A program made the position numbers and the translations under genes. A stretch of 39,784 nt of DNA, from the sequence record SRR31156797_4029; one strand, written 5' to 3'. Shown here in pieces: positions 10,914-33,896 of this stretch. Within the stretch, counting starts at the first letter, position 1. Every line of letters starts with the position of its first letter. The notes beneath the pieces are model-generated. The model made no database searches, was not told where the DNA came from, and saw nothing but the letters and a program-made list of their open reading frames with translations.

Positions 10914-10929
10914 GATACCCATTTGTTTT

Positions 10930-12389: not shown

Positions 12390-13309
12390 TAGCTGCCACC
12401 TCCGGTATAGTGAACCCAGCGTGGTGCCAGCTTGAGATTGATAAAGGTCAAGACTAAGACGATCAAGAACAAGATCATCGACATGGCCATCGCATAGCCC
12501 ATATCAAAGGCGACGAAGGCTTTGTTCCACATATGCAAATTATAGAAGAGCAGCGAATTTGCAGGACCGCCGGTACCATTTTTGGTCATCACGTATGCTT
12601 CTTGGAAAATTTGAAAAGAACCGATCGTTGAAGTAATCACATCATAGAAGATGATTGGCGTGATCAAAGGGATCGTAATATTTTTGAATTTCGCCCAGAC
12701 TCCCGCCCCATCGATCTCAGCCGATTCATACAGCGTCGGTGAAATATTTTGCAAGGTAGCTAGATACAAGAGCATCGCGCCCCCCGAACTCCAAATCTTC
12801 ATCAAAATCAACGCTGGTTTCGTCCATTCGGGATCAAACAGCCACGCTGGACCTTTGATATTGAACCAGCTCAAGAAGGTATTGATCAATCCTGCGGAAG
12901 GAGATAATAATTGCATCCATAAGACGTAGACGGCAACCCCTGAAAGGATCGCTGGCAAGTAAAAGGTCGTTCGGAAAAAACTGATTCCGCGGATTTTTTG
13001 ATTCAATAACGTGGCTAGAAAGACACTGAACAACGTGGTTAAGGGAACATTGAAGAGTACAAAATACGCCGTGTTATAGAGAGATTTCCAAAACAGGGTA
13101 TCTTGCGTAAACATGCGGGTAAAGTTCTTAAAGCCGATAAAATTCATTTTCGAAGTCAGATTGTAATCGGTAAAGCTTCCTACGAAGGAAAACAGCATGG
13201 GCCCTAACATAAACACCACGAACCCAAGCAAAAATGGTGCTACGAAGAAGTAGCCCCAAAGAGCTTCTTGCCGTTTACTTTTTGAACGCTTCTTTGGCAT
13301 TCCTTCCAC
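12389..13309 (-). CDS. Carbohydrate ABC transporter permease (MalF-like)
   Basis: EAA loop LYESAEIDGA, FRTTFYLP, MGYAMA motifs. Confidence 0.93.
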   Translation of the reverse strand: MEGMPKKRSKSKRQEALWGYFFVAPFLLGFVVFMLGPMLFSFVGSFTDYNLTSKMNFIGFKNFTRMFTQDTLFWKSLYNTAYFVLFNVPLTTLFSVFLATLLNQKIRGISFFRTTFYLPAILSGVAVYVLWMQLLSPSAGLINTFLSWFNIKGPAWLFDPEWTKPALILMKIWSSGGAMLLYLATLQNISPTLYESAEIDGAGVWAKFKNITIPLITPIIFYDVITSTIGSFQIFQEAYVMTKNGTGGPANSLLFYNLHMWNKAFVAFDMGYAMAMSMILFLIVLVLTFINLKLAPRWVHYTGGGS

Positions 13310-13432
13310 TCCATTCTATTTTTACTCATTGTTTGTTCAAGAAAACATGTCCGCTTCGCAAAGCAGAAAGCAAAGCCCAGTCCGCTAACCGACTGGACTT
13401 TCCTTCTTTTTTAAAAACGCTCGTTTTGAAAT

Positions 13433-14749: not shown

Positions 14750-14991
14750 TTAACCTAACCTACTTTCATTTATTTTTAATGTACTATTTAAAAGCTATCA
14801 CTACTTCTTCTTTTCAGCAAACAAAAAGCATCGTTATTCGAATAAAAAAATAACATTTTTACCGTTTCACGATAAGAAGAGCGTTTTCTTTGAAAATTTA
14901 AAAAAAGTGGGGCATCATAGAAATAGCACCTATTTTTCAACCTCTCGTTAGATCATTTGAAAAACGATGTTTATAGAAAGGGAGTAACCAC

Positions 14992-15495
14992 ATGCTAGTC
15001 ATTGTCGATATGCAAAACCAAATTCTCGATGAAGCGAACGAAGCGTATGTGCCAGATAGCGCCGCTCTCGTCAAACGAATCGCCAAGCGCCTAGAACAAG
15101 CGCGGGTGAATGGGGAGTACATCTTACACACCCGCGACATCCCAATCGAAGTCAAAGGAACGCCTGATGAAGAAGCCGCTGCCCTGCAGCTTATCCCAGA
15201 ACTTAAGCCTCTCGAAAATGAAAAAGTCGTCAAGAAATACTATTACAGTATTCCACCTGAAGTCTTGATCGACATCAAGAAAAATCTATTTAAGCCTGAA
15301 GAAGAAAAGAAAATCGAAATCACCGGTGTTGAAACCAACATCTGCGTCCTTTCCAATACGATCGAGATCCAAAGCGCCTTTCCTGACGCTGATTTCACCA
15401 TCAATAAAACATTAGTCGCCGGTAAAAATCACGAGTCGCAAGGACTCGACATCTTACGAGACTTCAATGTCCAAATCATTGATGGAACAAAATAA
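14992..15495 (+). CDS. Isochorismatase-family cysteine hydrolase
   Basis: VIVDMQN, catalytic K (VVKK), GVETNICV. RBS GAAAGGGAG. Confidence 0.88.
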   Translation: MLVIVDMQNQILDEANEAYVPDSAALVKRIAKRLEQARVNGEYILHTRDIPIEVKGTPDEEAAALQLIPELKPLENEKVVKKYYYSIPPEVLIDIKKNLFKPEEEKKIEITGVETNICVLSNTIEIQSAFPDADFTINKTLVAGKNHESQGLDILRDFNVQIIDGTK

Positions 15496-15516
15496 ACCAA
15501 TGACCAATAAATAACG

Positions 15517-15549
15517 AAAGCTCCCTGTTCAAGGAACAGAGAGCTTTTT
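15517..15549. terminator. Intrinsic terminator, probably bidirectional
   Basis: AAAGCTCCCTGTTC-AAG-GAACAGAGAGCTTTTT between convergent genes. Confidence 0.8.
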
Positions 15550-15565
15550 CAATTTAATTATTCAT

Positions 15566-15850
15566 TCAATTCATTGAGCCATCTAATAGCTCGGTCGGAA
15601 TTTCAATCCGAACCTCATTTTCTGTCTGACAGTTTGGACATACGAAGGTTCCTTCGATGGCTTCCTTCACTTCCCCGTAAGTATAATGAATAGCGATTTC
15701 ATCTTCTGCCAATTCATTCGTTTCCAACGGTGGTACCATGGTTAATTGCCCCTCGCTGTCTTCTTGTAAATGAACGACTAGCTTCCCATCAAAGTTTTCA
15801 TTGCAATTGGTGCAGGAAGCTTTTCCTCGAATCGTTAGATCCATGATCAT
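15566..15850 (-). CDS. Small acidic zinc-ribbon-like protein
   Basis: Two CxxC pairs (CTNC, CPNC) about 55 aa apart. RBS GAGGAGG. Confidence 0.7.
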   Translation of the reverse strand: MIMDLTIRGKASCTNCNENFDGKLVVHLQEDSEGQLTMVPPLETNELAEDEIAIHYTYGEVKEAIEGTFVCPNCQTENEVRIEIPTELLDGSMN

Positions 15851-16135
15851 CCCTCCTCATTTCTTGTCACTGGTTGATGCAGGTTCCAGTAGATACTCGT
15901 AACACATGCATGCTTCACTTTAATAGTGTCACGCTTTCACTTTTTTAGCAAATCATCTGTTTTTCTTTTTTTAAACCATTGATGAAGAAAAATCCTAATC
16001 AACCGTTTTGAGCGTTTTCGTTGTCAAATCGTTAAAATCCTTGCAGAATTAACTTATCTGTTACTGAAAAGTAAAAACATGTTGTTGGAAAAATTAGTGA
16101 TTGTCCGAACTTATCTGAACAAACAAGGAGGAAAA

Positions 16136-17272
16136 ATGATGCAAGCAGTAACCTGGCAAGGAAATCAAAAAATGGACGTTCGCCGTGTAGAAGATCCAAC
16201 GATTTTAGAACCGACGGATGCGATCATCCGAATCACCGCAACTGCAATCTGCGGCTCTGATCTCCACCTTTACCACCATGGCGGCTCGGTTTTGGAAGAA
16301 GGCTATGTCGTTGGTCACGAACCAATGGGTATTGTCGAAGAAGTCGGCAGTCAAATACAGAAACTAAAAAAAGGCGACCGCGTCGTCATCCCTTTCAATA
16401 TCGGTTGCGGTCACTGCCACTTTTGCCAAAATGAGATGGAAAGTCAATGCGACAATTCTTCAGAAGATACATTGTATGGCGGCTTATTCGGTTTTGGAAA
16501 AATGAACGGCAACCACTGGGGCGGTCAAGCCGAATTCTTGCGCGTACCGTTCGCAGATTTCACCTCGTTTATCGTACCTGAATCAACGATCCCTGATGAA
16601 AAAGTATTGTTTTTATCTGACATCTTACCTACAGCATATTGGAGCGTCCAAAATGCCGGCGTCAAAAAAGATGATACCGTGATCGTCTTAGGCTCAGGAC
16701 CAGTTGGCTTGTTTGCGCAAAAATTTGCTGTGATGGCAGGCGCTAAGCGGGTGATTGCCGTGGACCCTGTTGCTCATCGCCTAGAAAAAGCCAGCAGCTA
16801 CAATCAAGTCGAAACATTCCAATTGGATGATCTGGCTACTAGTGCCGATGAATTGTATGAGCTGACCAAAGGTGGCGCTGATGTGATCATCGACTGTGTT
16901 GGGATGGATGGTTTAGAACCCGTCAAAGAAAAAGCCAAAAATCTAGTCAGCTTGCAAAGTGGAACAATCTCACCGATCCAGATGGCCGCCAAGGCAGTCA
17001 AAAAATTTGGTACCGTCCAAATCACTGGCGTTTACATGACACCTGCTTCTTCTTATCCATTGCAAGAATTCTTTATGCGCAACATTGATGTCAAACACGG
17101 GCAAGCACCTGTGATCCATTTGATGCCAAAAATTTATGATATGATCGCGGACGGTTTGTTTGACCCGTCACAGATCATCACCCACACGATGCCTTTAGCA
17201 GATGCTGCCAAAGCGTATGAGATTTTTGACAAAAAAGAAGACAAGAACATCAAAGTTGTCTTGAAACCTTAG
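16136..17272 (+). CDS. Zinc-dependent alcohol/aldehyde dehydrogenase (formaldehyde-dehydrogenase-like MDR)
   Basis: ICGSDLH, GHEPMG, structural-Zn CGHCHFC...C, GGQAEF, LSDILPT, GSGPVG. RBS AAGGAGG before ATG 16136/16139. Confidence 0.9.
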   Translation: MMQAVTWQGNQKMDVRRVEDPTILEPTDAIIRITATAICGSDLHLYHHGGSVLEEGYVVGHEPMGIVEEVGSQIQKLKKGDRVVIPFNIGCGHCHFCQNEMESQCDNSSEDTLYGGLFGFGKMNGNHWGGQAEFLRVPFADFTSFIVPESTIPDEKVLFLSDILPTAYWSVQNAGVKKDDTVIVLGSGPVGLFAQKFAVMAGAKRVIAVDPVAHRLEKASSYNQVETFQLDDLATSADELYELTKGGADVIIDCVGMDGLEPVKEKAKNLVSLQSGTISPIQMAAKAVKKFGTVQITGVYMTPASSYPLQEFFMRNIDVKHGQAPVIHLMPKIYDMIADGLFDPSQIITHTMPLADAAKAYEIFDKKEDKNIKVVLKP

Positions 17273-17291
17273 CACAAATAAAGGAGCAGTG

Positions 17292-17636
17292 ATGGCACCT
17301 ATGCCAAAAATCAAACGGAGTGAACATCAATTCGATCCTGGAAAAGAAGAAGATGTGATCATCAAGGCAAGTCGCTTTCGCATCTACTTTCAAAATCGCT
17401 ACATGTTGATCTCACTTACGAATGATATTTTGACGGGCTTGTTTTATATTTTCGGGAGTATCGTTTCATTAACTAGCTTACCTGCGATTTACGGAACGAT
17501 CGCCTATTTGATCGGCGGTGTCTTTTTGACCATTCGCCCGCTGATTAAAATCGTTCGCCATGTCTATATCTATAATGATCGCAATCAAGAAGGCGAGAAA
17601 GAAAAAGATGTCACCATCACCGACGATGAAAGTTGA
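17292..17636 (+). CDS. YrhK-like membrane protein
   Basis: 'NDILTGLFYIFGS...LIGGVFLTIRPLI' two-TM pattern recalled as YrhK-like. RBS AAGGAG; exact start uncertain (17289/17292/17301). Confidence 0.7.
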   Translation: MAPMPKIKRSEHQFDPGKEEDVIIKASRFRIYFQNRYMLISLTNDILTGLFYIFGSIVSLTSLPAIYGTIAYLIGGVFLTIRPLIKIVRHVYIYNDRNQEGEKEKDVTITDDES

Positions 17637-17664
17637 TGGGGCGACAACTAGAGAGGAGTTTCCT

Positions 17665-17880
17665 ATGTTAAAAACATTTGATGGGATCGCACTGACACTA
17701 TTGATCATCGGTGGGATCAATTGGCTGCTGGTCGGCGCCTTCGAGTTTGACCTTGTCGCAGCGATCACCGGCGGCAGCACGTCGATCATTGCCCGCGTCA
17801 TTTATATTCTAGTTGGGATCAGCGCATTGTATAGCCTAAAATTCTTTCCAGCTATCGCCCGCCAACAAACACTCGACTAA
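17665..17880 (+). CDS. DUF378 (YuzA-like) small membrane protein
   Basis: IIGGINWLLVG.F.FDLVAAI.G...ARVIYILVGISA signature. RBS GAGAGGAG before ATG 17665. Confidence 0.85.
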   Translation: MLKTFDGIALTLLIIGGINWLLVGAFEFDLVAAITGGSTSIIARVIYILVGISALYSLKFFPAIARQQTLD

Positions 17881-17893
17881 ATGAAAATAAAGC

Positions 17894-17976
17894 CTGCATC
17901 TGCGGTGTGCTGACCCCAAAAAAGTTAGATTTTTGGTCTAACTTTTTGAGGTCGCATCTGTGGATGTAGTTTTTTT
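17894..17976 (+). terminator. Long terminator hairpin with a nested repeat
   Basis: CTGCATCTGCGG pairs (with G-U pairs) with CTGTGGATGTAG, followed by T7. Confidence 0.7.
17906..17956. mobile_element. IS3/IS150-group terminal-inverted-repeat stub (MITE-like)
   Basis: TGTGCTGACCCCAAAAAAGTTAGA...TCTAACTTTTTGAGGTCGCA. TG...CA ends and a CCCCAAAA(A)GTTAGA core resemble IS150-group ends as recalled. No transposase. Confidence 0.6.
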
Positions 17977-18061
17977 GTCTACAATCATTGAAAAAAAACA
18001 CCAGTTGTACTACTCTTGTATTTAACCTACTATTTTCGAAAATATAAAAAGGACGTGACTC

Positions 18062-18904
18062 ATGACCCCACCTACTAGACCCTCGCTGATACGTCGGATA
18101 CTCGGTCGGATGCTTTTGCTATTGATTTTCTTATTTATTCTAGGTATTATTGGCGGAATTATTGTTTTAAATAACCTCACCATCGCGGAAAATTGGTTTG
18201 GTCTGAATGAATACCAAGTCGTTGAAACCAGGCATCAGATCATTCGTTTGTTCCCCTACTTTTGGGTAGCAGGGATCCTGCTGGTCTTTTTGATCGGTCT
18301 GATCATCGGCCTCAAAAAACACAAAAAGTCGCCATTTTACTGGTTATTCTCATTGCTCTTGCTGCCAGCGATTCTCTTTTGTATTGGCGTAGTTTCCACC
18401 TTTTTACCTGTAGACCGCCAACTCTTTCGAGAAGAAACCAGTGCCAAAGAAATTATGGCGGCGCTGCCAAATCAATCTTCATTCAAGGACAAAGAGCTGC
18501 AACTGGTCAGCTATAGTTTTCACATCCGCAATGTCCCGCTAAAAAGCGGCATTTATGCAGTTGCGCGAGTGATCAATCCAAACACAGGCCTACAAGACGA
18601 GTATTGGTATTACCCAGAAAATCTGTTGACCAAATGGAAAAAAGACGACGATACGATCGAGCTTTCGATGGAAGATACCATTGCCTTTGATGCCATCGAC
18701 TGGGGCGTCATTCCCAAGATCATCAAGGATTCTGAGGCGCGAGCAGCTCAGCTAGATCACTATGTTCCTGGCGTCAGCATCGTCATTTTAAACGGCTTCC
18801 AAGGTGAATGGACTTGGACCGTTGGTTTAAATGGGATTCGTAATCGAACCGAGATCAATTATGTCTATGATCTCAAAGGAAATTATCAATCCGAATGGCA
18901 ATAA
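18062..18904 (+). CDS. Hypothetical membrane protein (3 N-terminal TMs + soluble domain)
   Basis: 280-aa ORF, RBS AAAGGA, own terminator. No recognisable motif. Confidence 0.75.
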   Translation: MTPPTRPSLIRRILGRMLLLLIFLFILGIIGGIIVLNNLTIAENWFGLNEYQVVETRHQIIRLFPYFWVAGILLVFLIGLIIGLKKHKKSPFYWLFSLLLLPAILFCIGVVSTFLPVDRQLFREETSAKEIMAALPNQSSFKDKELQLVSYSFHIRNVPLKSGIYAVARVINPNTGLQDEYWYYPENLLTKWKKDDDTIELSMEDTIAFDAIDWGVIPKIIKDSEARAAQLDHYVPGVSIVILNGFQGEWTWTVGLNGIRNRTEINYVYDLKGNYQSEWQ

Positions 18905-18907
18905 AAC

Positions 18908-18943
18908 AAGCGGCACCTATCCCCGTGAATAGGTGCCGCTTTT
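18908..18943. terminator. Terminator between convergent genes
   Basis: AAGCGGCACCTAT...ATAGGTGCCGCTTTT perfect stem. It closes the sulfatase operon from the other direction. Confidence 0.88.
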
Positions 18944-18955
18944 GCTTTTATCAGT

Positions 18956-19819
18956 TTACTGATCCAAGTCTTTGACACACCGAAACCCTAAATTATTGGC
19001 TGCCGACATCCCAGAATTACCATTTCTAGCGGCAATTCGGTATCGTTTGCAATAGGATTCATGGCACAAAAATGAACCGCCGCGAGTCGCATACAGTTGA
19101 TCATCTTGTGTTTGATTCCTTATCCAAAAGGTTTGTCCCGTCTGTTGTTGAAACTGCGTCAACGGGATGCGGGCAGGATTGACGCACCATTCCCAGACGT
19201 TGCCGATCACTTGATAGAGACCAAAGCCATTGGGCTCATACCATTTCGCAGGCGCTGTATTGGCGAAGCCGTCTGCTCGCGTGTTGCTTTTTGGAAACTC
19301 GCCTTGCCAAATATTGCAATGATAGGTATTTTCTGCCAAAAATTCCCTTCCCCAAGGATATTTTTCAAAAGTTGTCCCGCCTTTTGCAGCGATCTCCCAC
19401 TCTGCTTCTGTCGGGAGGCGTTTTTTTGCCCATTGGCAATAGGCGATCGCATCGTTGCGAGACACCTGAACCACTGGGTGATCCATCCGCTGGGCAATCG
19501 TTGAATCAGGTCCTTCAGGATGACGCCAATCTGCGCCACTAACTGTGTACCACCAAGCCATATTCGGTATCTTTTGACTGCGGTGTTTCGTTTGCTCACT
19601 TAAAAAATAGTGAAAAACGAACGACCAGCCAAAGCGCTCGGCTTCTGTGACATATCCTGTTGCTTCCACAAAAACTTGGAAAGCTTGGTTCGTCACCGTC
19701 GTGGCATCAATGGCAAATGCTGGGCTGTCGAGGCTGATTTGCGGTCCCTCAAGATCCTCGGCAAAGCCGTCCATCGTATTCGTGCCGATTCGATAAGTTC
19801 CTGCTGGAATCGTGGGCAT
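18956..19819 (-). CDS. Formylglycine-generating enzyme (FGE/SUMF1, aerobic sulfatase maturase)
   Basis: HPVVQVS, RLPTEAEWE, GNVWEW, catalytic RGGSFLCHESYCKRYR with both Cys, NLGFRC. Confidence 0.92.
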   Translation of the reverse strand: MPTIPAGTYRIGTNTMDGFAEDLEGPQISLDSPAFAIDATTVTNQAFQVFVEATGYVTEAERFGWSFVFHYFLSEQTKHRSQKIPNMAWWYTVSGADWRHPEGPDSTIAQRMDHPVVQVSRNDAIAYCQWAKKRLPTEAEWEIAAKGGTTFEKYPWGREFLAENTYHCNIWQGEFPKSNTRADGFANTAPAKWYEPNGFGLYQVIGNVWEWCVNPARIPLTQFQQQTGQTFWIRNQTQDDQLYATRGGSFLCHESYCKRYRIAARNGNSGMSAANNLGFRCVKDLDQ

Positions 19820-19834
19820 CTGTTTGCCTCCTTT

Positions 19835-20611
19835 TTACAATAATTGATAGCCATTGTACAGATTGATCAGTAACACCAGCACGATCACGGTTTGGAATAC
19901 CAGTGTCACTCGCTGCGGTGACAGGACGTTGCTGGCCTTGGCGCCTAATAGTCCTCCCACGATCGCGGCTGGAATAACAAACCACAAAATTTGCAGATCA
20001 TACGCACCAAAACCTGTCGAAAAAGCGATCGTCAAAATTTTTGCCAGCTGCGAGAAAAAAATCGTACAAATTGAATAAATCGTCGCCTCTTTGATCGGCA
20101 TGGCAAACAGCAACATCAATAAAGAAACATTGATGGGTCCGCCGCCGATCCCCAGCAAACTGGCTAGAAAACCGAGAATCAAACCACAAGCTGCATACCA
20201 GCCGACTTTTTCCAACGCAAACCCGCGCCAGTTATATTTTGTATACAAAAAAGCAAACAATAGTGACAGCACGGTCACAAGGATTTGGATCAGCTGAACC
20301 ATCTTGTCGTCTCGAAAAACCAGCAATAGCTGTTCAAAGGCAACATTGCCTAAAACACCGCCTAACACAGCACCACCAGAAACCCACAAGGCAATCGACC
20401 AATTGATTTTCCGTCCACTGGCTAATTGTCTAGCTGTCGAAACGATAGACATCGTGAAGACAGCTGTCGCCGAGTAAAAAGAGATCGCAGCAACAGAATG
20501 GGCGCCGATAAAATCGAAAATCGGTTTGATCAATACACCACCACCCATGCCGGAAACTGCACCTACGGCATTTGCTAAGACGATCACGAGAAAATAAATC
20601 AATCCGATCAT
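19835..20611 (-). CDS. TauE/SafE-family sulfur-compound (sulfite) exporter
   Basis: Duplicated G(M/I)GGG motifs (SGMGGG, LGIGGG), about 8 TMs, 258 aa. Overlaps the upstream stop (ATGA). Confidence 0.85.
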   Translation of the reverse strand: MIGLIYFLVIVLANAVGAVSGMGGGVLIKPIFDFIGAHSVAAISFYSATAVFTMSIVSTARQLASGRKINWSIALWVSGGAVLGGVLGNVAFEQLLLVFRDDKMVQLIQILVTVLSLLFAFLYTKYNWRGFALEKVGWYAACGLILGFLASLLGIGGGPINVSLLMLLFAMPIKEATIYSICTIFFSQLAKILTIAFSTGFGAYDLQILWFVIPAAIVGGLLGAKASNVLSPQRVTLVFQTVIVLVLLINLYNGYQLL

Positions 20612-21720
20612 TGTCTCACCCCTTGCAACAGCCCCAATATCTCATTGATTCTGGGTGTGAAGTCTTTTAACAGCTCCTGATAGCCGCAAAACCCCTCACT
20701 ATCCACGTACATTGCATCTTTCATTCGTTTACAGCCTCCTCGGCACATTTTTTGGAAAGGACATTGCGTACACTTCGAAGGCATGTCTTTTTTCTGGCAC
20801 AAAAACTGCTGCGAACAGTCTTGAGAAAACAATTCCCGCAACGTTTGCTCTTGGATATAGCCCATGCGAAACTCATCTAATACATAGAAGTCACAAGGAT
20901 AGACACTGCCGTCGGCTTCGATCACATACTGCACTTGGCAGTTGCCTAGAATCCCACAGGCAGTTACTTGCTGCCGCACCAATAGATTTAGTAAATCATC
21001 GAACAGCTTAATACTTAGGTAGCGCCCTTGTGTCAATTCCTGCAGCCAAAACGCCAACAGCTGCTGATAAAAGTGCGCAAAGCTTCTTGGTGTCAAGGCA
21101 TAGTCGTTCGTTGACGTGGCATCCAAATCAGCCAAACAAGGAATGAACTGCGCAAAGGCAATCTGCTCTTCCTTGAGAAAATCAAACACACGCTGGGCTT
21201 CCTTTGCTAATGGATTTGTCAACACGCACAAGACATTGTACTCGATCTGATAGGCGTCCAATAATCGCTTGGTCTGCAAAACCCGCGCAAAGGTCCCCCG
21301 CCCTTTGGCGTCTAATCGATGCCGATCGTGCGCAAGCGGATGCCCATCGATCGACAGCCCGACTAAAAAGCGATACTCTTTCAAAAAACGACACCATTTA
21401 TCATTGATCACCATGCCGTTGGTCTGGATCGCATAGTGTACTGTCACTCGCTTTTTTTGCGCCGCAACATAAGCCGTTAGTTTTCTAAAATAACTCAGCC
21501 CTGCCATCGTCGGCTCTCCGCCTTGAAATGCCAACGTCAAATGATCGCCAGCTTCTAAGTCTGCATAGATGTTTGCAATCATCTTTTCCATTACACCCTC
21601 TTTCATTTTGCCAAAGGAACGCACTTCGCGCAAGGAACTGACGTTGGCATAAAAGCAATAGGTGCAGCGCAGATTGCAAAGATAGGATGCTGGCTTGATC
21701 AATACGGAGATATGTTTCAT
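20608..21720 (-). CDS. Anaerobic sulfatase-maturating enzyme (radical SAM/SPASM, anSME)
   Basis: IKPAS..CNLRCTYC, FQGGEP, QTNG, SIDG, EADGSVYPCDF and SPASM CTQC...CRGGC motifs. Confidence 0.93.
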   Translation of the reverse strand: MKHISVLIKPASYLCNLRCTYCFYANVSSLREVRSFGKMKEGVMEKMIANIYADLEAGDHLTLAFQGGEPTMAGLSYFRKLTAYVAAQKKRVTVHYAIQTNGMVINDKWCRFLKEYRFLVGLSIDGHPLAHDRHRLDAKGRGTFARVLQTKRLLDAYQIEYNVLCVLTNPLAKEAQRVFDFLKEEQIAFAQFIPCLADLDATSTNDYALTPRSFAHFYQQLLAFWLQELTQGRYLSIKLFDDLLNLLVRQQVTACGILGNCQVQYVIEADGSVYPCDFYVLDEFRMGYIQEQTLRELFSQDCSQQFLCQKKDMPSKCTQCPFQKMCRGGCKRMKDAMYVDSEGFCGYQELLKDFTPRINEILGLLQGVRQ

Positions 21721-21749
21721 GTGGAGGCCTCGATTCTTTTTTTACTTTT

Positions 21750-23237
21750 TTAGCGTTTGTCGCGTTTCATCGGAACAAAATCAGTCGTTTCCATATAAAA
21801 ACGAGTAACGCGTTGTTTCATTTTCTCGACAATTTCGGCGTATGCTTTTTCTAGCGCCAAATTCTTGATTTCCATCGGGTCTTTTTCCAAATCATATAGT
21901 TCGTCATGCTCATAAAGACGCATCACATATTTATAGTTTCCCATCTTGCACATAACTGCTTTTGTATGTTCCGGACCTTCGCTATACTGTGTCGCAAGCC
22001 GCGGCCAATACGGAGATTTCGGTCCATGCCCCAGCTCCATCGCTTGTGTCTCCCCATGAGTGCGTCCGCCTTCGCAAAAAACAGCATCTTTGTGCTCTTC
22101 GGCTCCTTTGATCACAGGAACCAAGGATTTTCCAAATTGTGTATAGGAAAGATCAAACTCAGCCATTTCGGCGATCGTTGCTGGTAAATCTAGCAGTTCC
22201 GCTTGTGCTTTGGTGATTCGCGGCACACTTTCAATCGTTTTAGCAGGTTTGATGACCAATGGGACATTCGTGATCGGCTCTTCAAAACAGTTTTGGACTT
22301 TTTCAGTGATCGTGTAGTCACCAGTATAGTCCCCATGATCACTGAAAACAATGAGGTTTGTCTCATCATAAAAGCCTGTTTCACGCAGCTTCTCTTTGAT
22401 CATGCCCAGTTGATGATCAAAGCGCGAAACCATTGCTAAATAGGTGGCGCGTAATTCATCAAAGCGCTCTTCTGTCCAACCGTTCAAATTCTGTTTCTCA
22501 TTGATGCCATACAGCATTGAGGCTTTGTTAGGAATATCTTTGATGTTCGGTCGGCGTTTCGGCAGTTTCTGACGATCAATACTCGAATACCATGGATCTT
22601 CGCAAGCATAGGGTGGATGTGGGAATGAGATCGTACAATAAACGAAAAATGGTTTGTCTGTCTTTTCCTGACTGCGACGTTCAAGATAGTCCAACGCCTT
22701 TTTCACACAATTCCAATCCGTTTTGCCATAACCCTCACTATCTGGTAATTTTCCCATATAAAATGAATAATACGTATCTCCTGAAAGCATCTGGTCGTAT
22801 AGCTGTTTACTGGCTTCGTTCATATCGGCGGAATGATTGACTTCACTGTTTTGTGCATCCCGAGTGTTTTCGTCTACCACACCGTCATAATATTCATCAC
22901 AATAGTCTGTTTTTGGTTTATCTCCCGGAACCACATCATTTCTGCCGATCCAGATGACTTCATAGCCTTGATTCTTCATTTCTTTCAAAATATTGGGTTC
23001 ATCTTCTCTTTGCAAATAGTGCATCGTTCGATGCCCATTGACATGTGGATAAAAACCCGTCAGAAAACTATTTCTAGAAGGCACACAGACGGGGTTTTGG
23101 CAGTAGGCATTTTCAAATGAAACCCCTTCTTCTGCCAGTTCATCAAAGTTAGGGGTGATTGATGCGGGATTCCCCATATGTGCGAGTGCGTCATTTCTCA
23201 TCTGATCTGCTACGAATAAAAAGATATTTTTTTTCAA
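21750..23237 (-). CDS. Cys-type sulfatase (formylglycine-dependent), cytoplasmic
   Basis: N-terminal ADQ metal ligands, CVPSRNSFLTG (CxPxR), PHPP, SDHGD, ELYDLEKDP. No signal peptide. TTG start after AGGAGG. Confidence 0.92.
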   Translation of the reverse strand: MKKNIFLFVADQMRNDALAHMGNPASITPNFDELAEEGVSFENAYCQNPVCVPSRNSFLTGFYPHVNGHRTMHYLQREDEPNILKEMKNQGYEVIWIGRNDVVPGDKPKTDYCDEYYDGVVDENTRDAQNSEVNHSADMNEASKQLYDQMLSGDTYYSFYMGKLPDSEGYGKTDWNCVKKALDYLERRSQEKTDKPFFVYCTISFPHPPYACEDPWYSSIDRQKLPKRRPNIKDIPNKASMLYGINEKQNLNGWTEERFDELRATYLAMVSRFDHQLGMIKEKLRETGFYDETNLIVFSDHGDYTGDYTITEKVQNCFEEPITNVPLVIKPAKTIESVPRITKAQAELLDLPATIAEMAEFDLSYTQFGKSLVPVIKGAEEHKDAVFCEGGRTHGETQAMELGHGPKSPYWPRLATQYSEGPEHTKAVMCKMGNYKYVMRLYEHDELYDLEKDPMEIKNLALEKAYAEIVEKMKQRVTRFYMETTDFVPMKRDKR

Positions 23238-23250
23238 CTTGTCTTTCCTC

Positions 23251-25296
<2,046 letters not shown>

Positions 25297-26118
25297 TTAT
25301 TGATCGATCAATTTTTGTACATGAAGCGTTAAATACAATTGTTCATCGTCATATAATGTTTTATTTAAATATTCGCCAATCAAACGGGTGGTTTCATAGG
25401 CTTTAGGATATTTATCAATCACGTGGACTAACAGAGGATTCCCGACGCCTTCAACGATTTCCTTGTTTTCAATCCGTTTAAAAAAGAATCTCAAATGGGT
25501 GACGAAGCGATCGAAAGCTAAACTATTCTCATCAATGTGCACACGATTGTGAATACGAATAAGTGAAATAATGTCTTTGATTTTTTGTGTCAGCAATTCG
25601 ATATCTTCCATCTTCTCTGAATCGTCATTGATTTGCGCATTAATAAAATGCATGGCGATATTACTGATCTCTGCCTCATTTAGGGAGAATTGCGTTTTGC
25701 TTTCAATCAATCGAACCGCATGCTCTCCTACTGCATACTCGTTGGGATAGAAACGCTTGATTTCCCAAGTCAAGCGATTGTTGATGCTGATCCCTTCTTC
25801 TTTCAAGCGAATCAAATTATAGATGTGATCCGTCAAAGAGATGTAAATGGAATCACTTAATTGGTAGGAAATGACTTGCTTTCCATAACGGATAATATCA
25901 TCCGCAAGAGACGCATATTGGATTGGAATGTTCTCTAGCAATTCCATCAAACGATCAGAGGATTTCTTATGAAGCACAAACACTTTTTCAATTTTTGATT
26001 CATCGGCGGTTTGTCCTGGTTTCATTTTGAAGCCAAGGCCGGTACCGATCCAGATAAAATCTTTGCCATCTTGTCCGACCAAAACTGCATTGTTGTTTAA
26101 GATTTTTTTGATCTTCAA
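25297..26118 (-). CDS. BglG/LicT-family transcriptional antiterminator
   Basis: CAT domain KIKKILNNNAV...GTGLGF, four PRD histidines (LTDHI, IAMHF, FVTHL, LTLHV). TTG 26118 follows AAGGAGGTGA. Confidence 0.93.
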   Translation of the reverse strand: MKIKKILNNNAVLVGQDGKDFIWIGTGLGFKMKPGQTADESKIEKVFVLHKKSSDRLMELLENIPIQYASLADDIIRYGKQVISYQLSDSIYISLTDHIYNLIRLKEEGISINNRLTWEIKRFYPNEYAVGEHAVRLIESKTQFSLNEAEISNIAMHFINAQINDDSEKMEDIELLTQKIKDIISLIRIHNRVHIDENSLAFDRFVTHLRFFFKRIENKEIVEGVGNPLLVHVIDKYPKAYETTRLIGEYLNKTLYDDEQLYLTLHVQKLIDQ

Positions 26119-26142
26119 GACGCTTCTCACCTCCTTAAAATG

Positions 26143-26202
26143 AAAAAAGGCGATACCTTAATACATGTGTAGGATCCATACACACGTAAAAAGGTATAGC
26201 CT
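26143..26202 (-). terminator. Leader attenuator terminator overlapping RAT 1
   Basis: Minus strand AGGCTATACCTT...AAGGTATCGCCTTTTTT with an inner TGTGTA/TACACA stem. Confidence 0.85.
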
Positions 26203-26221
26203 GCATTATCAGTAACTACCC
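26193..26221 (-). promoter_or_regulatory. RAT upstream of the antiterminator gene
   Basis: Minus strand GGGTAGTTACTGATAATGCAGGCTATACC. Confidence 0.88.
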
Positions 26222-26235
26222 ATTTGATTGCCTTT

Positions 26236-26273
26236 ACTATACTATTTTTCTAGAAACGTTGCAAGCGTTTTAT
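26236..26273 (-). promoter_or_regulatory. SigA promoter of the sulfatase operon with a cre-like site over the -35
   Basis: Minus strand TTGCAA-17 nt-TATAGT (26264..26236). Plus strand TGCAAGCGTTTTAT (26260..26273) is a 2-mismatch cre. Confidence 0.7.
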
Positions 26274-26333: not shown

Positions 26334-27647
26334 TCACTGATCCAGCAAACGGCTTTGCCCTTCGATTTTTTGGATCTCCGTAATGTCTTGCGTGACTTCT
26401 AGACAACCTAAATAGATGCCTGCTTCGTTTTTTAATGCAAAATAGCGAATATAGATTTTACGGCCCCGCATATCGATCCAAAATTCAGCAGTCTCCCGTG
26501 TGCCCGCTCGAAAATCATCCAAAATCTGCTGCACGAGATGCATGCTTTTCGGTGGATGGCAGTTGACGACTTCACGGCCTAAAACCGAATTCGTTCGTGG
26601 AAAGACGCGACTCTTGCCTTCTGAATAAAAGCGCACCCGCTCTTCACTATCTACAAAGGTCAAGTCCACTGGCAACGTTTGAAAAATCGCCACCAATTGT
26701 TCAAATTGCAAATTACCAGTAGGCAATGAGAGGGTCGGCTGTTCAGCAATTTGCGGCGAATTTTCCGTTTCTATGACTTGAAATTCATCGAATCCTAAAC
26801 CGGCTGCGATGCCGGCGGTTGTTTCTTGGGCTTGTTTGATCGCCGCTTGCCTTGCGGGTTCTGCCGCCTGTTCCTTTTCAAGAGCTTCTTGGCTCGGTTT
26901 CCAAGGAAGCGGTTCTGGAATAAAGGCAAAGCCGATGTCTAAACTGTCAGCCGCAATTTGTTCCCAATCTTTAAGACTGAAGACATCCAGCGTCATTGGC
27001 ACCATGATTTCTTCTTCTTTGAAAATCATCTCTTCGATTTCGTTTTTGACCGCTTCCCATTGGACAGCAATCGGATTATAGGCAGTTTTTTCGGAAGCCA
27101 AAAGCTCATTGAGCGCTTTGATCATGACCCGAATATTATCATCGACACCCCACATCACTTTTGGCGGTGCAGTGATGCCGTACTTCTCCATGTAAGAAAA
27201 AATCAACGTTTCTTTTCGCGCATAATGTTTGTCGATCTGCATTAAATCATTGCAGGCAGCTTTTAGACGCTTTTTAGGCGTCCAATCACCGGTTTTTATT
27301 TTAGCTAAGAGGCTATCGATCTCATCGGTCAACAAGGATTGCAGGACTTGGTTCTCCAATTTCAGAGTATGCACAGGATGGCCTGGTTGCCCATATTCTT
27401 CATTGGAGTGATGGATCTCATTGATCGATCCTTTAAAAACAGCAGCATGAATATTGCACAAACGCTGAATCTCAGAAGGGTCCAACCCCGTTTGGATCAA
27501 AGCTTTTTCAGCAGCAGTGATCTCCGTCACATCCACACCATCAAATTCTTCGTTAAACAAGCGTTTAGCTTCTTCAAAGGAACCGCCTTGGTGAAGCAAA
27601 CTCAGTATTTCGACGATCCGTTCTTGTCTTTGACTGTTAGTTTTCAT
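26334..27647 (-). CDS. DUF438 / hemerythrin-like / PAS domain protein
   Basis: EIQRLCNIHA, GHPVHT, HYARKE, PPKVMWGVDD, MIFKEE and C-terminal PAS (DLTFVD, VVNCHPPKS, LEVTQDIT). Start MKTNSQ coupled to the DUF1858 stop. Confidence 0.85.
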   Translation of the reverse strand: MKTNSQRQERIVEILSLLHQGGSFEEAKRLFNEEFDGVDVTEITAAEKALIQTGLDPSEIQRLCNIHAAVFKGSINEIHHSNEEYGQPGHPVHTLKLENQVLQSLLTDEIDSLLAKIKTGDWTPKKRLKAACNDLMQIDKHYARKETLIFSYMEKYGITAPPKVMWGVDDNIRVMIKALNELLASEKTAYNPIAVQWEAVKNEIEEMIFKEEEIMVPMTLDVFSLKDWEQIAADSLDIGFAFIPEPLPWKPSQEALEKEQAAEPARQAAIKQAQETTAGIAAGLGFDEFQVIETENSPQIAEQPTLSLPTGNLQFEQLVAIFQTLPVDLTFVDSEERVRFYSEGKSRVFPRTNSVLGREVVNCHPPKSMHLVQQILDDFRAGTRETAEFWIDMRGRKIYIRYFALKNEAGIYLGCLEVTQDITEIQKIEGQSRLLDQ

Positions 27648-27877
27648 TTCGTCGCTCCTTTCACAAGAAACCCTTGTTTTTCGAAAGCGAGACAAACCCT
27701 TTCCAAGGGGATCTTCTTCATCTGAGCCCCTTTGGGAATCGTCATGTAACGTCCAGCAGTTTGTAGCATCCCTGGTTGATTGATCGCCGTAAACCCTATT
27801 TTACTCATGATTTCTTGTATTTCAGGGTATTGTGCCACAAGTTCATAGAGCGTTTTTGACAGATCGATTTCTTTCAT
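27644..27877 (-). CDS. DUF1858 domain protein
   Basis: IDLSKTLYELV.QYPE...GF...MTIPKGA...GF pattern, 77 aa, typical partner of DUF438. Confidence 0.8.
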   Translation of the reverse strand: MKEIDLSKTLYELVAQYPEIQEIMSKIGFTAINQPGMLQTAGRYMTIPKGAQMKKIPLERVCLAFEKQGFLVKGATK

Positions 27878-27990: not shown

Positions 27991-28725
27991 CTAAGATTGT
28001 CGGTAACGGCACACCACTTTTTCCAACCAATCGATACTGGCAAAAAGCAGATAGCCCATCAAAGCAATCAGGAGGATACCCGAAAGCATTTGTGGGTAGT
28101 CCATTTTTGACCACGCACTTAAGATCAGATAGCCGACACCATACGTCGTGTTATAGTTTTCGGCAAAAAAGAGGGAAGCCAACGCGATCCCGATACTGAC
28201 CCGCACACTGGCAAAAAGTGCTGGCATGAGCGCGGGCAAAATAACGAAGCGCAAGACATGGTGCCATTGGTTGGTATAATTTTTCATGACCTGAAAATAC
28301 GCTGGTGGGATCTTCGTGACTGCATCACGAATCGAGACGATCACTTGAATGACGATCACCGCAAAAATCAAGAGAATTTTTGAGAGATTGCCTAAGCCAA
28401 AGAAAATCATAAAGACAGGTAAAAACGCAACTTTAGGAATCGGATATAAAAAGTAAAGCAGTGGACCAAGCAGCCGATCCACTCTTTGGGATCGCCCAAT
28501 CAAGATTCCTAACGGCACCCCGACTAGCAACGCCCCACTCAACGCCGCAAATACCCGCAGCAAACTGGCACCTGTGTGGATCAGTAAGACTTCTCGCAGT
28601 GCCCAAAAACGTTCGGCCGTTTCTAAAGGATTAGGCAGTGAGCGATTGTTGGTCACCCAGCTTACGCCCCACCAAACCACGACAAACGAACAGAAGCCCC
28701 AAGCAAAAGATTTGATGGGTTTCAT
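27991..28725 (-). CDS. NitT/TauT (SsuC-like) ABC transporter permease
   Basis: LPNP, YPIPKVAFLP, VILPALMP, AEN...GVGY motifs. Confidence 0.88.
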   Translation of the reverse strand: MKPIKSFAWGFCSFVVVWWGVSWVTNNRSLPNPLETAERFWALREVLLIHTGASLLRVFAALSGALLVGVPLGILIGRSQRVDRLLGPLLYFLYPIPKVAFLPVFMIFFGLGNLSKILLIFAVIVIQVIVSIRDAVTKIPPAYFQVMKNYTNQWHHVLRFVILPALMPALFASVRVSIGIALASLFFAENYNTTYGVGYLILSAWSKMDYPQMLSGILLIALMGYLLFASIDWLEKVVCRYRQS

Positions 28726-29441
28726 TGCCTCGCCTCCCTCATTTGTTCTTTCAACTGCAAGACGACTTCATAAAAAGCCAACGAGTCTCGTTCCAGCTGG
28801 CTGCCGTAAAATGGATTACTGATCGGCGTAACGTCCTGATCTTTTAGCAACAAAATCGTCTGCCCCAAAAACACTGCCTCTTCTGGATCGTGGGTCACCA
28901 CGATTAAGCTGTTTTGTCTGCGCTGCTGTTGAGCAGCGATCATGGCTTGTGCGTTTGCTTTGGTTTCTTGGTCCAGTGAAGCAGTCGGCTCATCCAATAA
29001 TAAAACATCGGGCTGTGTGATCAGTCCCCGCCCCATGGCAGCCCGCTGTTTTTGACCGCCGCTAAGCTGATGTGGATAGCGGTCCTGCACCTGCGTCAAT
29101 CCCAACTCCGCCAAACAGCTTGTGACCCGTTTTTTACGGCTCTCACTGGGTGTTTGATTGATAAGCAGCGGCATTTCCAGTACTTGGTAAACTGTTTGCC
29201 AAGGAAACAAATGCAGTTCTTGGAAAACGACCTCGATGTTGTCAGGGGAACAGCCTTGGTAAGTGATCGTGCCTGATTGCGGTCGCTGCAACCCTTTGAT
29301 CAAGGATAAAAGCGTGCTTTTGCCAATCCCCGATTCTCCCAGCAGCACATAGGTCGTTCCTTGTTCAAAACAAAACGAAAGATCCTTAAAAATGACGGTT
29401 TCCCCATACGTAAAGGAAACGGAATCGAATCGAATACTCAT
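28722..29441 (-). CDS. NitT/TauT ABC transporter ATP-binding protein
   Basis: Walker A GESGIGKST, YPHQLSGGQKQR, LLLDEP, VTHDPEEA. Start MSIRF after GAAAGAAG. Confidence 0.92.
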   Translation of the reverse strand: MSIRFDSVSFTYGETVIFKDLSFCFEQGTTYVLLGESGIGKSTLLSLIKGLQRPQSGTITYQGCSPDNIEVVFQELHLFPWQTVYQVLEMPLLINQTPSESRKKRVTSCLAELGLTQVQDRYPHQLSGGQKQRAAMGRGLITQPDVLLLDEPTASLDQETKANAQAMIAAQQQRRQNSLIVVTHDPEEAVFLGQTILLLKDQDVTPISNPFYGSQLERDSLAFYEVVLQLKEQMREARQ

Positions 29442-29470
29442 CAGAGAATAAACTTCTTTCTTAAAATTAT

Positions 29471-29501
29471 TTGTGTTGGTTTTCACATTTTATGCTATAC
29501 T
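29471..29501 (+). promoter_or_regulatory. Rex- or Crp/ArcR-like site plus extended -10 in the divergent promoter
   Basis: TTGTGTT-GGTT-TTCACAT (29471..29488) resembles TTGTGAA-N4-TTCACAA and TGTGA-N6-TCACA. TGcTATACT at 29493..29501. Confidence 0.45.
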
Positions 29502-29534
29502 ATTTTTTGCGTGATTGACAAGAAAGGATGGTTT

Positions 29535-30290
29535 ATGATGTTTCAGACCCTCGTATTTCATGAAATACGTCCCGAAGCAGAACTTTATGATCAGGTGCGC
29601 CCGATCAAAGTCGCAGACGGCTATCAAGATGCCTTGCCTCTGCCCTTATTCAATAGCACTTCTCATTTTAAACAACAAATCGACTTTTTGAAAGCAGAAA
29701 ATTACCATACGTTGACCCTTGCAGAAGTCAAAGATTTTTATTTCCGGCAGCAGCCGCTACCAGAAAAATCCGTGTTGCTGACCTTTGACGACTGTTATCA
29801 ATCAATGAAAGAATATGCCTACCCACTGTTGAAGGAAGCTGGTTTCAAGGCCACTGCCTTTGTCGTGACCGGCTGGCTTTTTGATGCCCCTCAGCCTTAC
29901 GAACCAGAAGTTTCGCGGACATTGAGCAGTGCCGAATTAGCCGAAATGAGCGATGTCTTCGAATATGCCAATCATACCGCTCATTTTCACGAACGCAAGA
30001 ACCAGCAAGGGCGGTCAATGTGGGAAACACCGGCAGCCTTTGCGCAAGACTTACGAAGCTGCAATCAGCACGTGGCCATCAAGGATGTTTTTGCCTATCC
30101 CTTTGGCTTTTATGATCAGCAGACGATCGCAACACTAGAAAATGAAGGCTTTGTTCTGGCATTTACAACCAAACCAGGCATCAATACGACAAAAACCAAG
30201 CCAATGGAACTCCATCGGGCAGTCATCCCGTTCTCACTACCAATGGCTGCTTTTGAACAACGATTTAGAAACGAGGAAATGAACCAATGA
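29535..30290 (+). CDS. Polysaccharide deacetylase family (CE4) protein, cytoplasmic
   Basis: LLTFDDCY, ANHTAHFH, FAYPFG motifs. No signal peptide. RBS GAAAGGA. Confidence 0.88.
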   Translation: MMFQTLVFHEIRPEAELYDQVRPIKVADGYQDALPLPLFNSTSHFKQQIDFLKAENYHTLTLAEVKDFYFRQQPLPEKSVLLTFDDCYQSMKEYAYPLLKEAGFKATAFVVTGWLFDAPQPYEPEVSRTLSSAELAEMSDVFEYANHTAHFHERKNQQGRSMWETPAAFAQDLRSCNQHVAIKDVFAYPFGFYDQQTIATLENEGFVLAFTTKPGINTTKTKPMELHRAVIPFSLPMAAFEQRFRNEEMNQ

Positions 30291-31264
30291 AAAAAACGAT
30301 TTTAGCAAGTATCCTAGCACTATTCGCTGTTGGCGCTGCCGCATGCGGCAACACTGGCGAAACAGCAAGTACCAGCAATTCCAGCACTAGCAGTACAGAA
30401 GCTGCGGTAACGGATCAAACATTGACGATCGGGGTGTTACCAGCAGAATCAGCGATTCCGATCATTCTAGCAAAAGAAGAAGGCTTTTTCGAAAAGCAAG
30501 GATTGACTGTGGAACTCGAATCCTTCACTTCCCCAAATGACCGCAATGTGGCAGTGCAGGCAGGCGAATTGGATGGTACGATCAGCGATGTCATGACAGA
30601 AGCGACCTTCAAGCAAAACGGCATCGATATGACGATCACTTCTGATATTTTGGAAAACTTCAAGATTCTCGCTTCACCGAATTCAGGGATTACTGAGATG
30701 AAAGGGTTAGCGGATAAAAAAATCACCCTTGTACCGAATTTCATTTTAGAATACATCATGGATCAATTTGCACAAGAAAATGATTTTACTTATGACATCG
30801 TGGATATCGCTTCTTTTTCTGCCCGTTCCGAAGCATTGCTCAATGACCAAGTCGATGGCGCTGTTTATACGGAACCGCAAGCCAGCATGTTGGCTGCCCA
30901 AGGGGCGATTGTTTTAGGCAGCTCTAAAGATGCTGGCATCAAAGGCGGGACGCTGCAATTTATGGACGAAGTCATCCAAAATCGACCGCAAGACCTAAAA
31001 GCATTCTACACTGCTTACAACGAAGCCATCGATTACATGAATGCTCATTCAGCAACAGACTATGCCGACATCTTGGCAGACTATCAATTTCCAGATGCTA
31101 TGAGTACTTACTTAGACAGCCAGGAAGACTATCCTTATGCCCAAGCTGTACCGCAAGAGCAATACGACGCGATCATTGCTTGGACGAAAGACAAAGGACA
31201 AATCGACCAAGCATATTCCTACAACGAGTTGACCAATTTCGATTTTTTACCCGCTGACGAATAA
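30287..31264 (+). CDS. NitT/TauT (SsuA/THI5-like) ABC substrate-binding lipoprotein
   Basis: Lipobox AAAC, IGVLP...AKEEGFFEKQGL, QAGELDG, YTEP motifs. ATGA-coupled to the deacetylase. Confidence 0.87.
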   Translation: MKKTILASILALFAVGAAACGNTGETASTSNSSTSSTEAAVTDQTLTIGVLPAESAIPIILAKEEGFFEKQGLTVELESFTSPNDRNVAVQAGELDGTISDVMTEATFKQNGIDMTITSDILENFKILASPNSGITEMKGLADKKITLVPNFILEYIMDQFAQENDFTYDIVDIASFSARSEALLNDQVDGAVYTEPQASMLAAQGAIVLGSSKDAGIKGGTLQFMDEVIQNRPQDLKAFYTAYNEAIDYMNAHSATDYADILADYQFPDAMSTYLDSQEDYPYAQAVPQEQYDAIIAWTKDKGQIDQAYSYNELTNFDFLPADE

Positions 31265-33038: not shown

Positions 33039-33147
33039 CCTGTCTCCTCCTACTAAATATCTCGCTTTTTTAATAAGAGTAGCATAAAAAACGCTTTCTG
33101 CATTTTTAGAACACTCGACGCCTTCCCGATTCCAAGAATACTGCTGG

Positions 33148-33804: not shown

Positions 33805-33865
33805 TTTTTCTCCCACACTTTCGTTTTTGCTTTTCTAAGTATGTGCTATACTGACTAAAAACAAA

Positions 33866-33881: not shown

Positions 33882-33896
33882 GTTTGGAGGAAAAAA

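Follow-up and report, generated by a model that had tools for sequence, protein, structure and literature searches.

A bgl-type phosphotransferase operon with a cytoplasmic sulfatase in the place of the glycosidase: a probable route for sulfated beta-glucosides

The classical bgl and lic operons, exemplified by bglGFB of Escherichia coli and licT-bglPH of Bacillus subtilis, combine an antiterminator of the BglG/LicT family (a CAT domain and two PRDs), a ribonucleic antiterminator (RAT) that overlaps a terminator, and a bgl-type enzyme II (EII) of the phosphotransferase system (PTS), which both transports and signals, with the gene for a 6-phospho-beta-glucosidase. Activation of the antiterminator through relief from idle EIIB, together with the action of HPr on PRD2, is the established mechanism of this regulator family. 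In 2006, Berteau and colleagues reportedly described a cytoplasmic Cys-type sulfatase of Clostridium perfringens that is matured by the radical-SAM enzyme anSMEcpe. An accessory island of Streptococcus pneumoniae, for which the consulted passages of the 2012 reports name no substrate, unites a ROK regulator, a Lac-family PTS (two EIIC, an EIIA and an EIIB), a sulfatase, a sulfatase-modifying enzyme and TauE (PMC3283741, PMC3302838). The present analysis concerns an operon on the minus strand (26264-18908) of a window of 39,784 nucleotides, the whole stretch of DNA analysed from sequence record SRR31156797_4029. It has the antiterminator, the overlap of RAT and terminator and the bgl-type EII in common with the classical operons, and differs from them in that a sulfatase, two maturases and the permease TauE stand where they carry the 6-phospho-beta-glucosidase gene. 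Firmicutes widely carry a unit in which a PTS EIIC is joined to a cytoplasmic sulfatase, and the operon is a bgl-type form of it. It is likely to be a substrate-induced catabolic operon through which a sulfated beta-glucoside is imported and 6-phosphorylated, desulfated in the cytoplasm with export of the sulfate, and finally cleaved by a glycoside hydrolase of family GH1 encoded elsewhere.

The six genes follow one another in the order antiterminator, bgl EIIBCA, sulfatase, anSME, TauE and FGE, as read from open reading frame (ORF) calls and from Pfam and NCBIfam searches, with 13 nt between the PTS and sulfatase genes, 29 nt between sulfatase and anSME, a 4-nt overlap of the TauE start with the anSME stop, and 15 nt between TauE and FGE. 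A single predicted promoter would serve the whole unit through to its end hairpin. This sigma-70-like site, TTGCAA-17 nt-TATAGT (26236-26264, minus strand), has 9 of 12 consensus matches; the promoter scan overall was not enriched (15 sites against 16.8 expected from shuffles), and the site is credible because it is located about 15-20 nt upstream of RAT1. Two leaders carry the control elements. In leader 1 (26142-26220, minus strand) the RAT1 core (26216-26199) overlaps the stem (26202-26148) of an intrinsic terminator, which is followed by a T-run, and leader 2 (25218-25294, minus strand) repeats this design with the RAT2 core at 25288-25271 and the stem at 25274-25224, again before a T-run. 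As Rfam at gathering score gave no match in the window, the RATs were examined by motif search and folding. The core GTTACTGN5GCAGGC occurs in two copies in the 39.8-kb window against 0.03 expected, one upstream of bglG and one upstream of the PTS gene, and the two terminators fold at -29.6 kcal/mol (z -4.77) and -39.2 kcal/mol (z -7.34), respectively. An alignment of leader 2 over nine sequences from several genera shows an invariant RAT core and compensatory changes in 10 of 21 terminator pairs, and a RAT core precedes bglG, the PTS gene or both in 9 of the 79 related loci introduced below. The operon closes on a bidirectional terminator hairpin (18908-18941; 15 pairs on the minus strand, -29 kcal/mol, z -8.25), which terminates both the operon and the convergent gene at 18062-18904. 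Domain searches found no GH1, GH3 or GH4 among the ORFs of at least 400 aa in the window, and none in the operon. An earlier note on this DNA, made from the sequence alone, had described a tightly packed single bgl-type unit with one promoter, two RAT/terminator leaders, these six genes, a closing hairpin and no glycosidase, and all of this is borne out by the spacing of the genes, the leaders, the domain searches, the motif counts and the folding.

The first gene encodes an antiterminator (ORF 25297-26130, minus strand; 273 aa from a probable TTG start at 26118 behind AGGAGG) with an N-terminal CAT_RBD domain (PF03123, 72.9 bits) and two stretches of PRD (PF00874, 121.7 bits). It scores 157 bits against the PRDs of LicT (1tlv), and in the alignment to this structure all four regulatory His of PRD1 and PRD2 are kept (SLTDHI, IAMHFINA, RFVTHLRFF and LYLTLHVQ). 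Judged by its sequence, it is a member of the BglG/LicT family and not a LicT equivalog. The EIIBCA that follows (23251-25185, minus strand; 644 aa from the ATG at 25185, the frame being open from 25290) is a single chain with EIIB, EIIC and Glc-type EIIA_1 domains in Pfam. It lies above the cut-off of the beta-glucoside subfamily TIGR01995 (729.3 vs 614.7 bits) and below that of the E. coli BglF equivalog (703 vs 894 bits), and its family predicts import of a beta-glucoside with phosphorylation at C6.

The third gene encodes a Cys-type (formylglycine) S1 sulfatase (21750-23237, minus strand; 495 aa from a TTG start preceded by GGAGG), with a sulfatase domain (PF00884, 138.9 bits), the signature CVPSRNSFLTG, and Cys51 in CVPSR. 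Residues C51, P53, S54 and R55 are invariant in 41 sequences, namely the window sulfatase and 40 homologues chosen from 120 listed. The protein has no signal peptide, because the first beta-strand starts at residue 4 and leaves no room for one, and the 40 aligned homologues have the same leaderless N-terminus; the CVPSR motif and this N-terminus confirm the cytoplasmic CxPxR sulfatase of the earlier note. The enzyme falls far below the equivalog cut-offs for choline sulfatase (160.8 vs 433 bits) and PehA (159.8 vs 900 bits), and far below the PRK13759 arylsulfatase cut-off (187.9 vs 481 bits). Its AlphaFold (AF2) model has a pLDDT of 84 and a pTM of 0.90, with pLDDT below 50 in segment 52-71, right after the catalytic Cys. 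The nearest solved folds in Foldseek are SpAS1 (4upi), BT1918 of subfamily S1_46 (7oz8) and the phosphonate monoester hydrolases 2vqr and 2w8s, followed by choline sulfatase (6fny) and the exo-2S-iota-carrageenan sulfatase PsS1_NC (6pt4). Solved S1 sulfatases have the alkaline-phosphatase-like S1 fold and the formylglycine motif in common with the window enzyme, but differ from it in sequence (about 18-23% identity, about 21% for the nearest, at a TM of about 0.7), and relatives so distant allow no specificity to be transferred to it. The named members of its 90% cluster are E. gallinarum (6) and Enterococcus sp. (1).

Two maturases accompany the sulfatase. The anSME (20608-21720, minus strand) has Radical_SAM and SPASM domains in Pfam, carries the CxxxCxxC core as CNLRCTYC, and matches anSMEcpe (4k36-4k39) at 313 bits over its full length, residues 3-357. 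The aerobic FGE (18956-19819, minus strand; PF03781, 227.6 bits; LCHESYCKRYR), which is without a signal peptide, scores 300.7 bits against the FGE of Thermomonospora curvata (5nxl) and 283.7 bits against human FGE (1y1e), and keeps the active-site Cys pair, its GGSFLCHESYC aligning to the same motif of 5nxl. Such closeness to solved and characterised enzymes makes both of them genuine, as the earlier note had supposed in calling them activators of the sulfatase. Between the two maturases lies a TauE/SafE (TSUP) anion permease (19835-20611, minus strand; PF01925, 110 bits, residues 6-247 of 258). Where the earlier note saw an exporter of sulfur compounds, the PF01925 match upholds a TauE-family permease, and sulfate as its cargo is presumed.

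It is evident from the related loci that the joining of PTS and sulfatase reaches well beyond this window. A scan of one genome per species yielded 79 loci with a sulfatase relative, 77 of them at 55-87% identity and two (L077 and L078) at 46-47%. The six window proteins were compared with these loci, and the ORFs within 7 kb were clustered and the clusters named by Pfam; the neighbour counts cover 78 loci, L056 being excluded as its sulfatase was lost in the ORF filter. A PTS EIIC stands immediately upstream of the sulfatase in 55 of the 78 loci (45 of the Lac/Cel type and 10 of the bgl type); in 59 the sulfatase has one as its direct neighbour on one side or the other, and in 69 there is one no more than 7 kb away. 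Within the same distance of the sulfatase are found an RpiR regulator (44 loci), anSME (37), TauE (18), a ChrA-family pair (6, so that TauE or ChrA is present in 24), a LicR-type regulator (17), GH1 (10), YdjC (9) and FGE (4). In a quick maximum-likelihood tree of 89 sulfatases, comprising that of the window and all cluster members longer than 400 aa, the window enzyme falls into a clade of 10 rows (SH-aLRT 100) from four families of Bacilli, all 10 of them bgl-linked; the other nine come from five Enterococcus genomes, two of Pseudolactococcus, Listeria costaricensis and Amphibacillus sediminis. Since this clade branches from within the Lac/Cel-EIIC-linked sulfatases of Clostridia and Erysipelotrichia, its history looks like a swap of transporter and regulator within an older PTS-sulfatase module. 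The PTS proteins of the sister loci are 63-82% identical to that of the window (53-56% in two Clostridium loci), and the sulfatase-linked PTS proteins of other genera are closer to it than any bgl-PTS paralogue (at most 47%) in G001, the nearest genome (84% of k-mers common), a close relative and not the window's strain, from which the in-genome counts of this study are taken.

The neighbour counts and the sulfatase tree therefore establish a PTS-sulfatase link conserved across genera. They also place the earlier note's picture of a 'rewired' bgl operon in a different light. The picture holds in so far as no GH1 is present here. As a local novelty it was overstated, given that this sulfatase family is PTS-linked in most of the 78 loci and mainly stands behind a Lac/Cel-type EIIC with RpiR, and that an island of PTS, sulfatase, maturase and TauE was published in 2012, as far as the consulted parts of those reports describe it (PMC3283741, PMC3302838). 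Nor is the GH1 slot empty throughout, as the Amphibacillus locus (L003) reads BglG-PTS-sulfatase-GH1-TauE. The maturases, too, vary within the clade of 10. The window, L001 and L002 have both anSME and FGE within 7 kb, L007 has FGE only, L004, L005, L008 and L009 have anSME only, and neither is present in L003 and L006. That one operon holds an oxygen-dependent and an oxygen-independent maturase for a single sulfatase makes a tidy case of adaptation to a facultative lifestyle.

The survey of gene neighbourhoods for plant-associated or gut Firmicutes, which had been proposed along with the earlier note, turned up many carriers among animal-gut Clostridia and Erysipelotrichia, and the sulfatase orthogroup is common in those of the mouse, human, rumen and chicken gut. 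The module occurs in 2 of 8 genomes of the genus and in 8 of 134 Enterococcaceae species genomes (6 of 17 genera), and the 401 sampled genomes of Streptococcaceae hold four orthologues at 80-82% identity plus one match at 40%. Overall, the module is patchily distributed and probably horizontally mobile.

Several of these loci deserve mention in their own right. Six of them (L022, L044, L058, L060, L066 and L070) are without TauE and carry a short ChrA pair beside RpiR-EIIC-sulfatase, often together with a LysR regulator, which suggests that the ChrA pair is an alternative anion exporter in the role of TauE. A Clostridiaceae locus (L013, about 8600-18000) has two PTS-sulfatase modules in tandem, the first with RpiR and Lac/Cel EIIC, sulfatase and anSME, and the second with BglG, a bgl PTS 56% identical to that of the window, a distant second sulfatase and TauE. 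L020, L025 and L036 carry an additional module of RpiR, a sucrose-like EIIBC and a second sulfatase, and L012 and L015 have three sulfatases each. The 40% match in Streptococcaceae lies in an MFS-linked cluster on one strand (L085, G511:C9:41000-60900, about 4686-18965), whose genes run from an MFS_2 transporter through a sulfatase, anSME, TauE, the second sulfatase (the 40% match) and a PFK-like kinase to a class II aldolase, a PGI-like isomerase, a second TauE, a xylose-isomerase-like TIM barrel, a GFO/IDH/MocA oxidoreductase and another TIM barrel. This set of genes resembles a pathway in the style of glycolysis for a sulfated hexose, which would enter by an importer other than a PTS.

Taken together, the parts of the operon point to the following course of events. 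Transcription would start at the one promoter and halt at the two RAT-overlapping terminators unless the antiterminator is active, and this would be the case when its cognate EIIB is occupied with substrate and HPr is able to phosphorylate PRD2. The EIIBCA would bring the glucoside in and, as expected of its family, phosphorylate the C6 of its glucose; the cytoplasmic formylglycine sulfatase would then strip the sulfate from the phosphorylated glycoside. Its Cys51 would be converted to formylglycine by anSME without oxygen and by FGE with oxygen. The released sulfate would leave the cell via TauE, and the desulfated 6-phospho-beta-glucoside would fall to a GH1 6-phospho-beta-glucosidase, one of many whose genes lie in other parts of the genome. 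The gene content of G001 is in keeping with such a division of labour. Of its four Pfam Sulfatase matches only one is of sulfatase size, the other three lying in frames of 623-722 aa that we take to be LtaS-like, so that both maturases can be assigned to the sulfatase of the operon; and given its 27 GH1 matches, about 26 genes, the operon has no need of a dedicated glycosidase.

The sister operons tell what kind of glycoside this may be. Besides the Amphibacillus order given above, L074 reads BglG-sulfatase-PTS-GH1 and L040 reads RpiR/EIIC-sulfatase-GH1. The linked GH1s (L003, L074, L040 and L052) pass the cut-off of the 6-phospho-beta-glucosidase subfamily (655-926 vs 639 bits) and remain far below that of lacG (200-257 vs 561 bits), and the best model for the Lac/Cel EIICs is the cellobiose EIIC, at 334-356 bits and below the equivalog cut-off. 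The general idea of a sulfated beta-glucoside, put forward in the earlier note, is thus supported, and we consider it probable that what these loci have in common is a beta-glucoside that receives its phosphate on entry, then loses its sulfate and is finally cleaved. The glucosidase type of the linked GH1s led us to drop substrates of three other kinds for this clade, namely 6-phospho-beta-galactosides, monosaccharide sulfates and N-sulfoglucosamine.

Evidence at the level of the transcript comes from Logan contigs of RNA libraries. In mouse metatranscriptomes, contigs X2 (22148-24251) and X3 (21713-23964) span the junction of PTS and sulfatase, and X3 also spans that of sulfatase and anSME, which offers weak support for co-transcription. 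A further contig, X1 (4832 nt), extends about 2 kb beyond the end hairpin, so that DNA carry-over or read-through is possible and the contigs are no proof of a transcript. Gaps in the cover of the operon by X1-X3 and X12, contig ends close to the RATs and the depths of single contigs are likewise no guide to transcript starts, attenuation or levels. This overrun is one of several points that weigh against a PTS-fed desulfation operon for beta-glucosides. By ORF clustering, 9 of the 78 loci have no PTS gene at a distance of up to 7 kb from the sulfatase. The antiterminator is below the NCBIfam cut-off for the LicT equivalog (273.3 vs 300 bits), and the anSME is narrowly below the TIGR03942 equivalog cut-off (342.7 vs 349.45 bits) as well as below that of PRK13758 (377.1 vs 441 bits). 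It is from gene context that TauE would be named the exporter of the released sulfate. The YdjC genes of nine loci and the multiple sulfatases of L012 and L015 are a hint that N-acetylated or multiply sulfated sugars are the substrates of some relatives. Further, we know of no sulfatase that acts on a 6-phosphorylated glycoside, and the literature searched held no biochemical or genetic datum on any member of the sulfatase clade.

Among sulfated beta-glucosides, the glucosinolates are a tentative choice of substrate. A 6'-phospho-glucosinolate would be desulfated before a phospho-beta-glucosidase acts on it, and glucose-6-phosphate and a harmless nitrile would result, with no isothiocyanate inside the cell. 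There is a clear selective logic in placing desulfation ahead of cleavage, as the cell would be spared intracellular isothiocyanate, and the GH1s linked to sulfatase loci are of the glucoside type. Animal glycans seldom contain beta-glucosides, and no other sulfated beta-(thio)glucosides in nature are as abundant as the glucosinolates, which likewise counts for this choice. The consulted part of a study on Companilactobacillus farciminis describes import and cleavage of sinigrin via a bgl-type EIIBCA and a GH1 6-phospho-beta-glucosidase (PMC8660893); desulfoglucosinolates yield nitriles, according to the passages seen of two reviews (PMC6767122, PMC8468500), and the bacterial sulfatase that turns glucosinolates into desulfoglucosinolates is called unidentified in the consulted sections of these and a third (PMC6767122, PMC8492924, PMC8468500). 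However, no sequence feature indicates a thiohydroximate-O-sulfate, the close named relatives are E. gallinarum, and none of the 120 listed homologues or the 79 loci bears the name of E. casseliflavus, the studied degrader; strain CP1 of that species, moreover, produces isothiocyanates besides nitriles. The spread of the orthogroup over gut Clostridia and Erysipelotrichia, some with YdjC or several sulfatases, is also unlike what a plant toxin with a single sulfate would suggest, and the module is rare in Enterococcaceae. A glucosinolate substrate is a chemically sensible guess that we regard as rather unlikely. The same doubt attaches to the wider proposal that this operon is the missing bacterial route of glucosinolate desulfation, in which the sulfatase would accept the phosphorylated thioglucoside and housekeeping phospho-beta-glucosidases would finish the work, and in which a PTS with a cytoplasmic sulfatase acting on phospho-sugars would form an unrecognised class of catabolic module in gut bacteria; it is offered as a speculation.

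Given the gut origin of most carriers of the orthogroup, a sulfated sugar of the host also has to be considered, for instance a fragment of mucin or glycosaminoglycan that enters through the PTS and loses its sulfate in the cytoplasm, as has been suspected of the pneumococcal island. The consulted part of the report on that island has it raise fitness in the mouse nasopharynx, lung and blood (PMC3283741), and the YdjC deacetylase-family genes in 9 loci and the three sulfatases in L012 and in L015 would fit the same idea. Against it stand the window transporter, which passes the cut-off of the beta-glucoside PTS subfamily, and the GH1s of the sister operons, which are of the 6-phospho-beta-glucosidase and not the lacG type. 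Host sulfates, moreover, are carried on Gal, GalNAc, GlcNAc, GlcN and uronic acids and often occupy C6, the position that the PTS has to phosphorylate, and the lone distant match in Streptococcaceae sits in a different, MFS-linked cluster, so that we hold a host sugar to be improbable. The patchiness of this accessory module and the TauC/SsuC-like ABC transporter just upstream (27991-29486) might even be read as signs of an accidental linkage or of a role in sulfur supply, in which an arylsulfatase cassette (sulfatase, maturases and TauE) landed behind a bgl PTS that had lost its GH1 and the substrate of the sulfatase is unrelated to the sugar of the PTS. Yet 10 loci from four families retain this junction of PTS and sulfatase together with orthologous PTS genes, and the same sulfatase family stands behind another PTS family in 45 further loci, a conservation that makes accidental linkage unlikely. 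The regulator, too, is a sugar-PTS antiterminator rather than a sulfur regulator, and a cytoplasmic sulfatase requires an importer, the PTS being the only one in the operon. We thus consider such a linkage highly improbable and return to an operon for sulfated beta-glucosides as the preferred explanation.

The surroundings of the operon add a few observations. Directly upstream on the same strand lies a DUF438-hemerythrin-PAS_10 protein (26334-27695), which is probably outside the operon because it has a counterpart in L001 only. Beyond it, a TauC/SsuC-like ABC permease and ATPase, together with an NMT1-type binding protein on the opposite strand, fill the block 27991-31264; 3 of the 79 loci (L001, L016 and L074) have this permease cluster close to their sulfatase, and a connection of this transporter with sulfur compounds is possible. 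The flanks at 3501-9653 and 31776-38712 form a sugar-utilisation neighbourhood, with a GH42 beta-galactosidase, a GH36 alpha-galactosidase, a Lac/Cel EIIC with a LacI regulator, an ABC sugar importer, a GH32 sucrase with a sucrose-type EIIBC and a LacI regulator, and an additional EIIC.

PTS-wired cytoplasmic sulfatases are common in gut Firmicutes, none of them with a known substrate, and the action of a sulfatase on a phosphorylated glycoside would be undescribed enzymology. The Enterococcus version is the easiest to attack, as it brings its own substrate-sensing switch in the two RAT leaders and is thus self-reporting. Should a glucosinolate prove to be the inducer, the operon would supply the bacterial sulfatase, long looked for, that steers glucosinolates of the diet away from isothiocyanates and towards inert nitriles, a question raised in nutrition reviews (PMC6767122, PMC8468500). 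With another inducer, it would still define a new pathway for sulfated glycosides of plant or host origin, and its role may help to account for the pneumococcal fitness island of similar design.

Our literature searches found no paper on an operon of BglG, bgl PTS and sulfatase, or on a substrate for the sulfatase clade. What is already known is the Lac-type island of PTS, sulfatase, maturase and TauE described in 2012, and what is new is its bgl-PTS/BglG version. Compared by gene content, and as far as the consulted parts of its description go, the S. pneumoniae island is like the window in that a single unit holds a PTS, a cytoplasmic sulfatase, a radical-SAM-type maturase and TauE, and unlike it in having a Lac/Cel PTS, a ROK repressor instead of RAT antitermination, and no FGE. 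The C. perfringens system and the window both pair a cytoplasmic Cys-type sulfatase with an anSME, whereas the window sulfatase is PTS-linked, lies far below the PRK13759 cut-off and has an FGE besides the anSME. Finally, the PttS/PbgS sinigrin route of C. farciminis, compared through the part of its description that was consulted (PMC8660893), resembles the window in that an EIIBCA phosphorylates a sulfated thioglucoside for processing in the cytoplasm, and differs from it in that a GH1 is present, a sulfatase is absent, and the product is allyl isothiocyanate.

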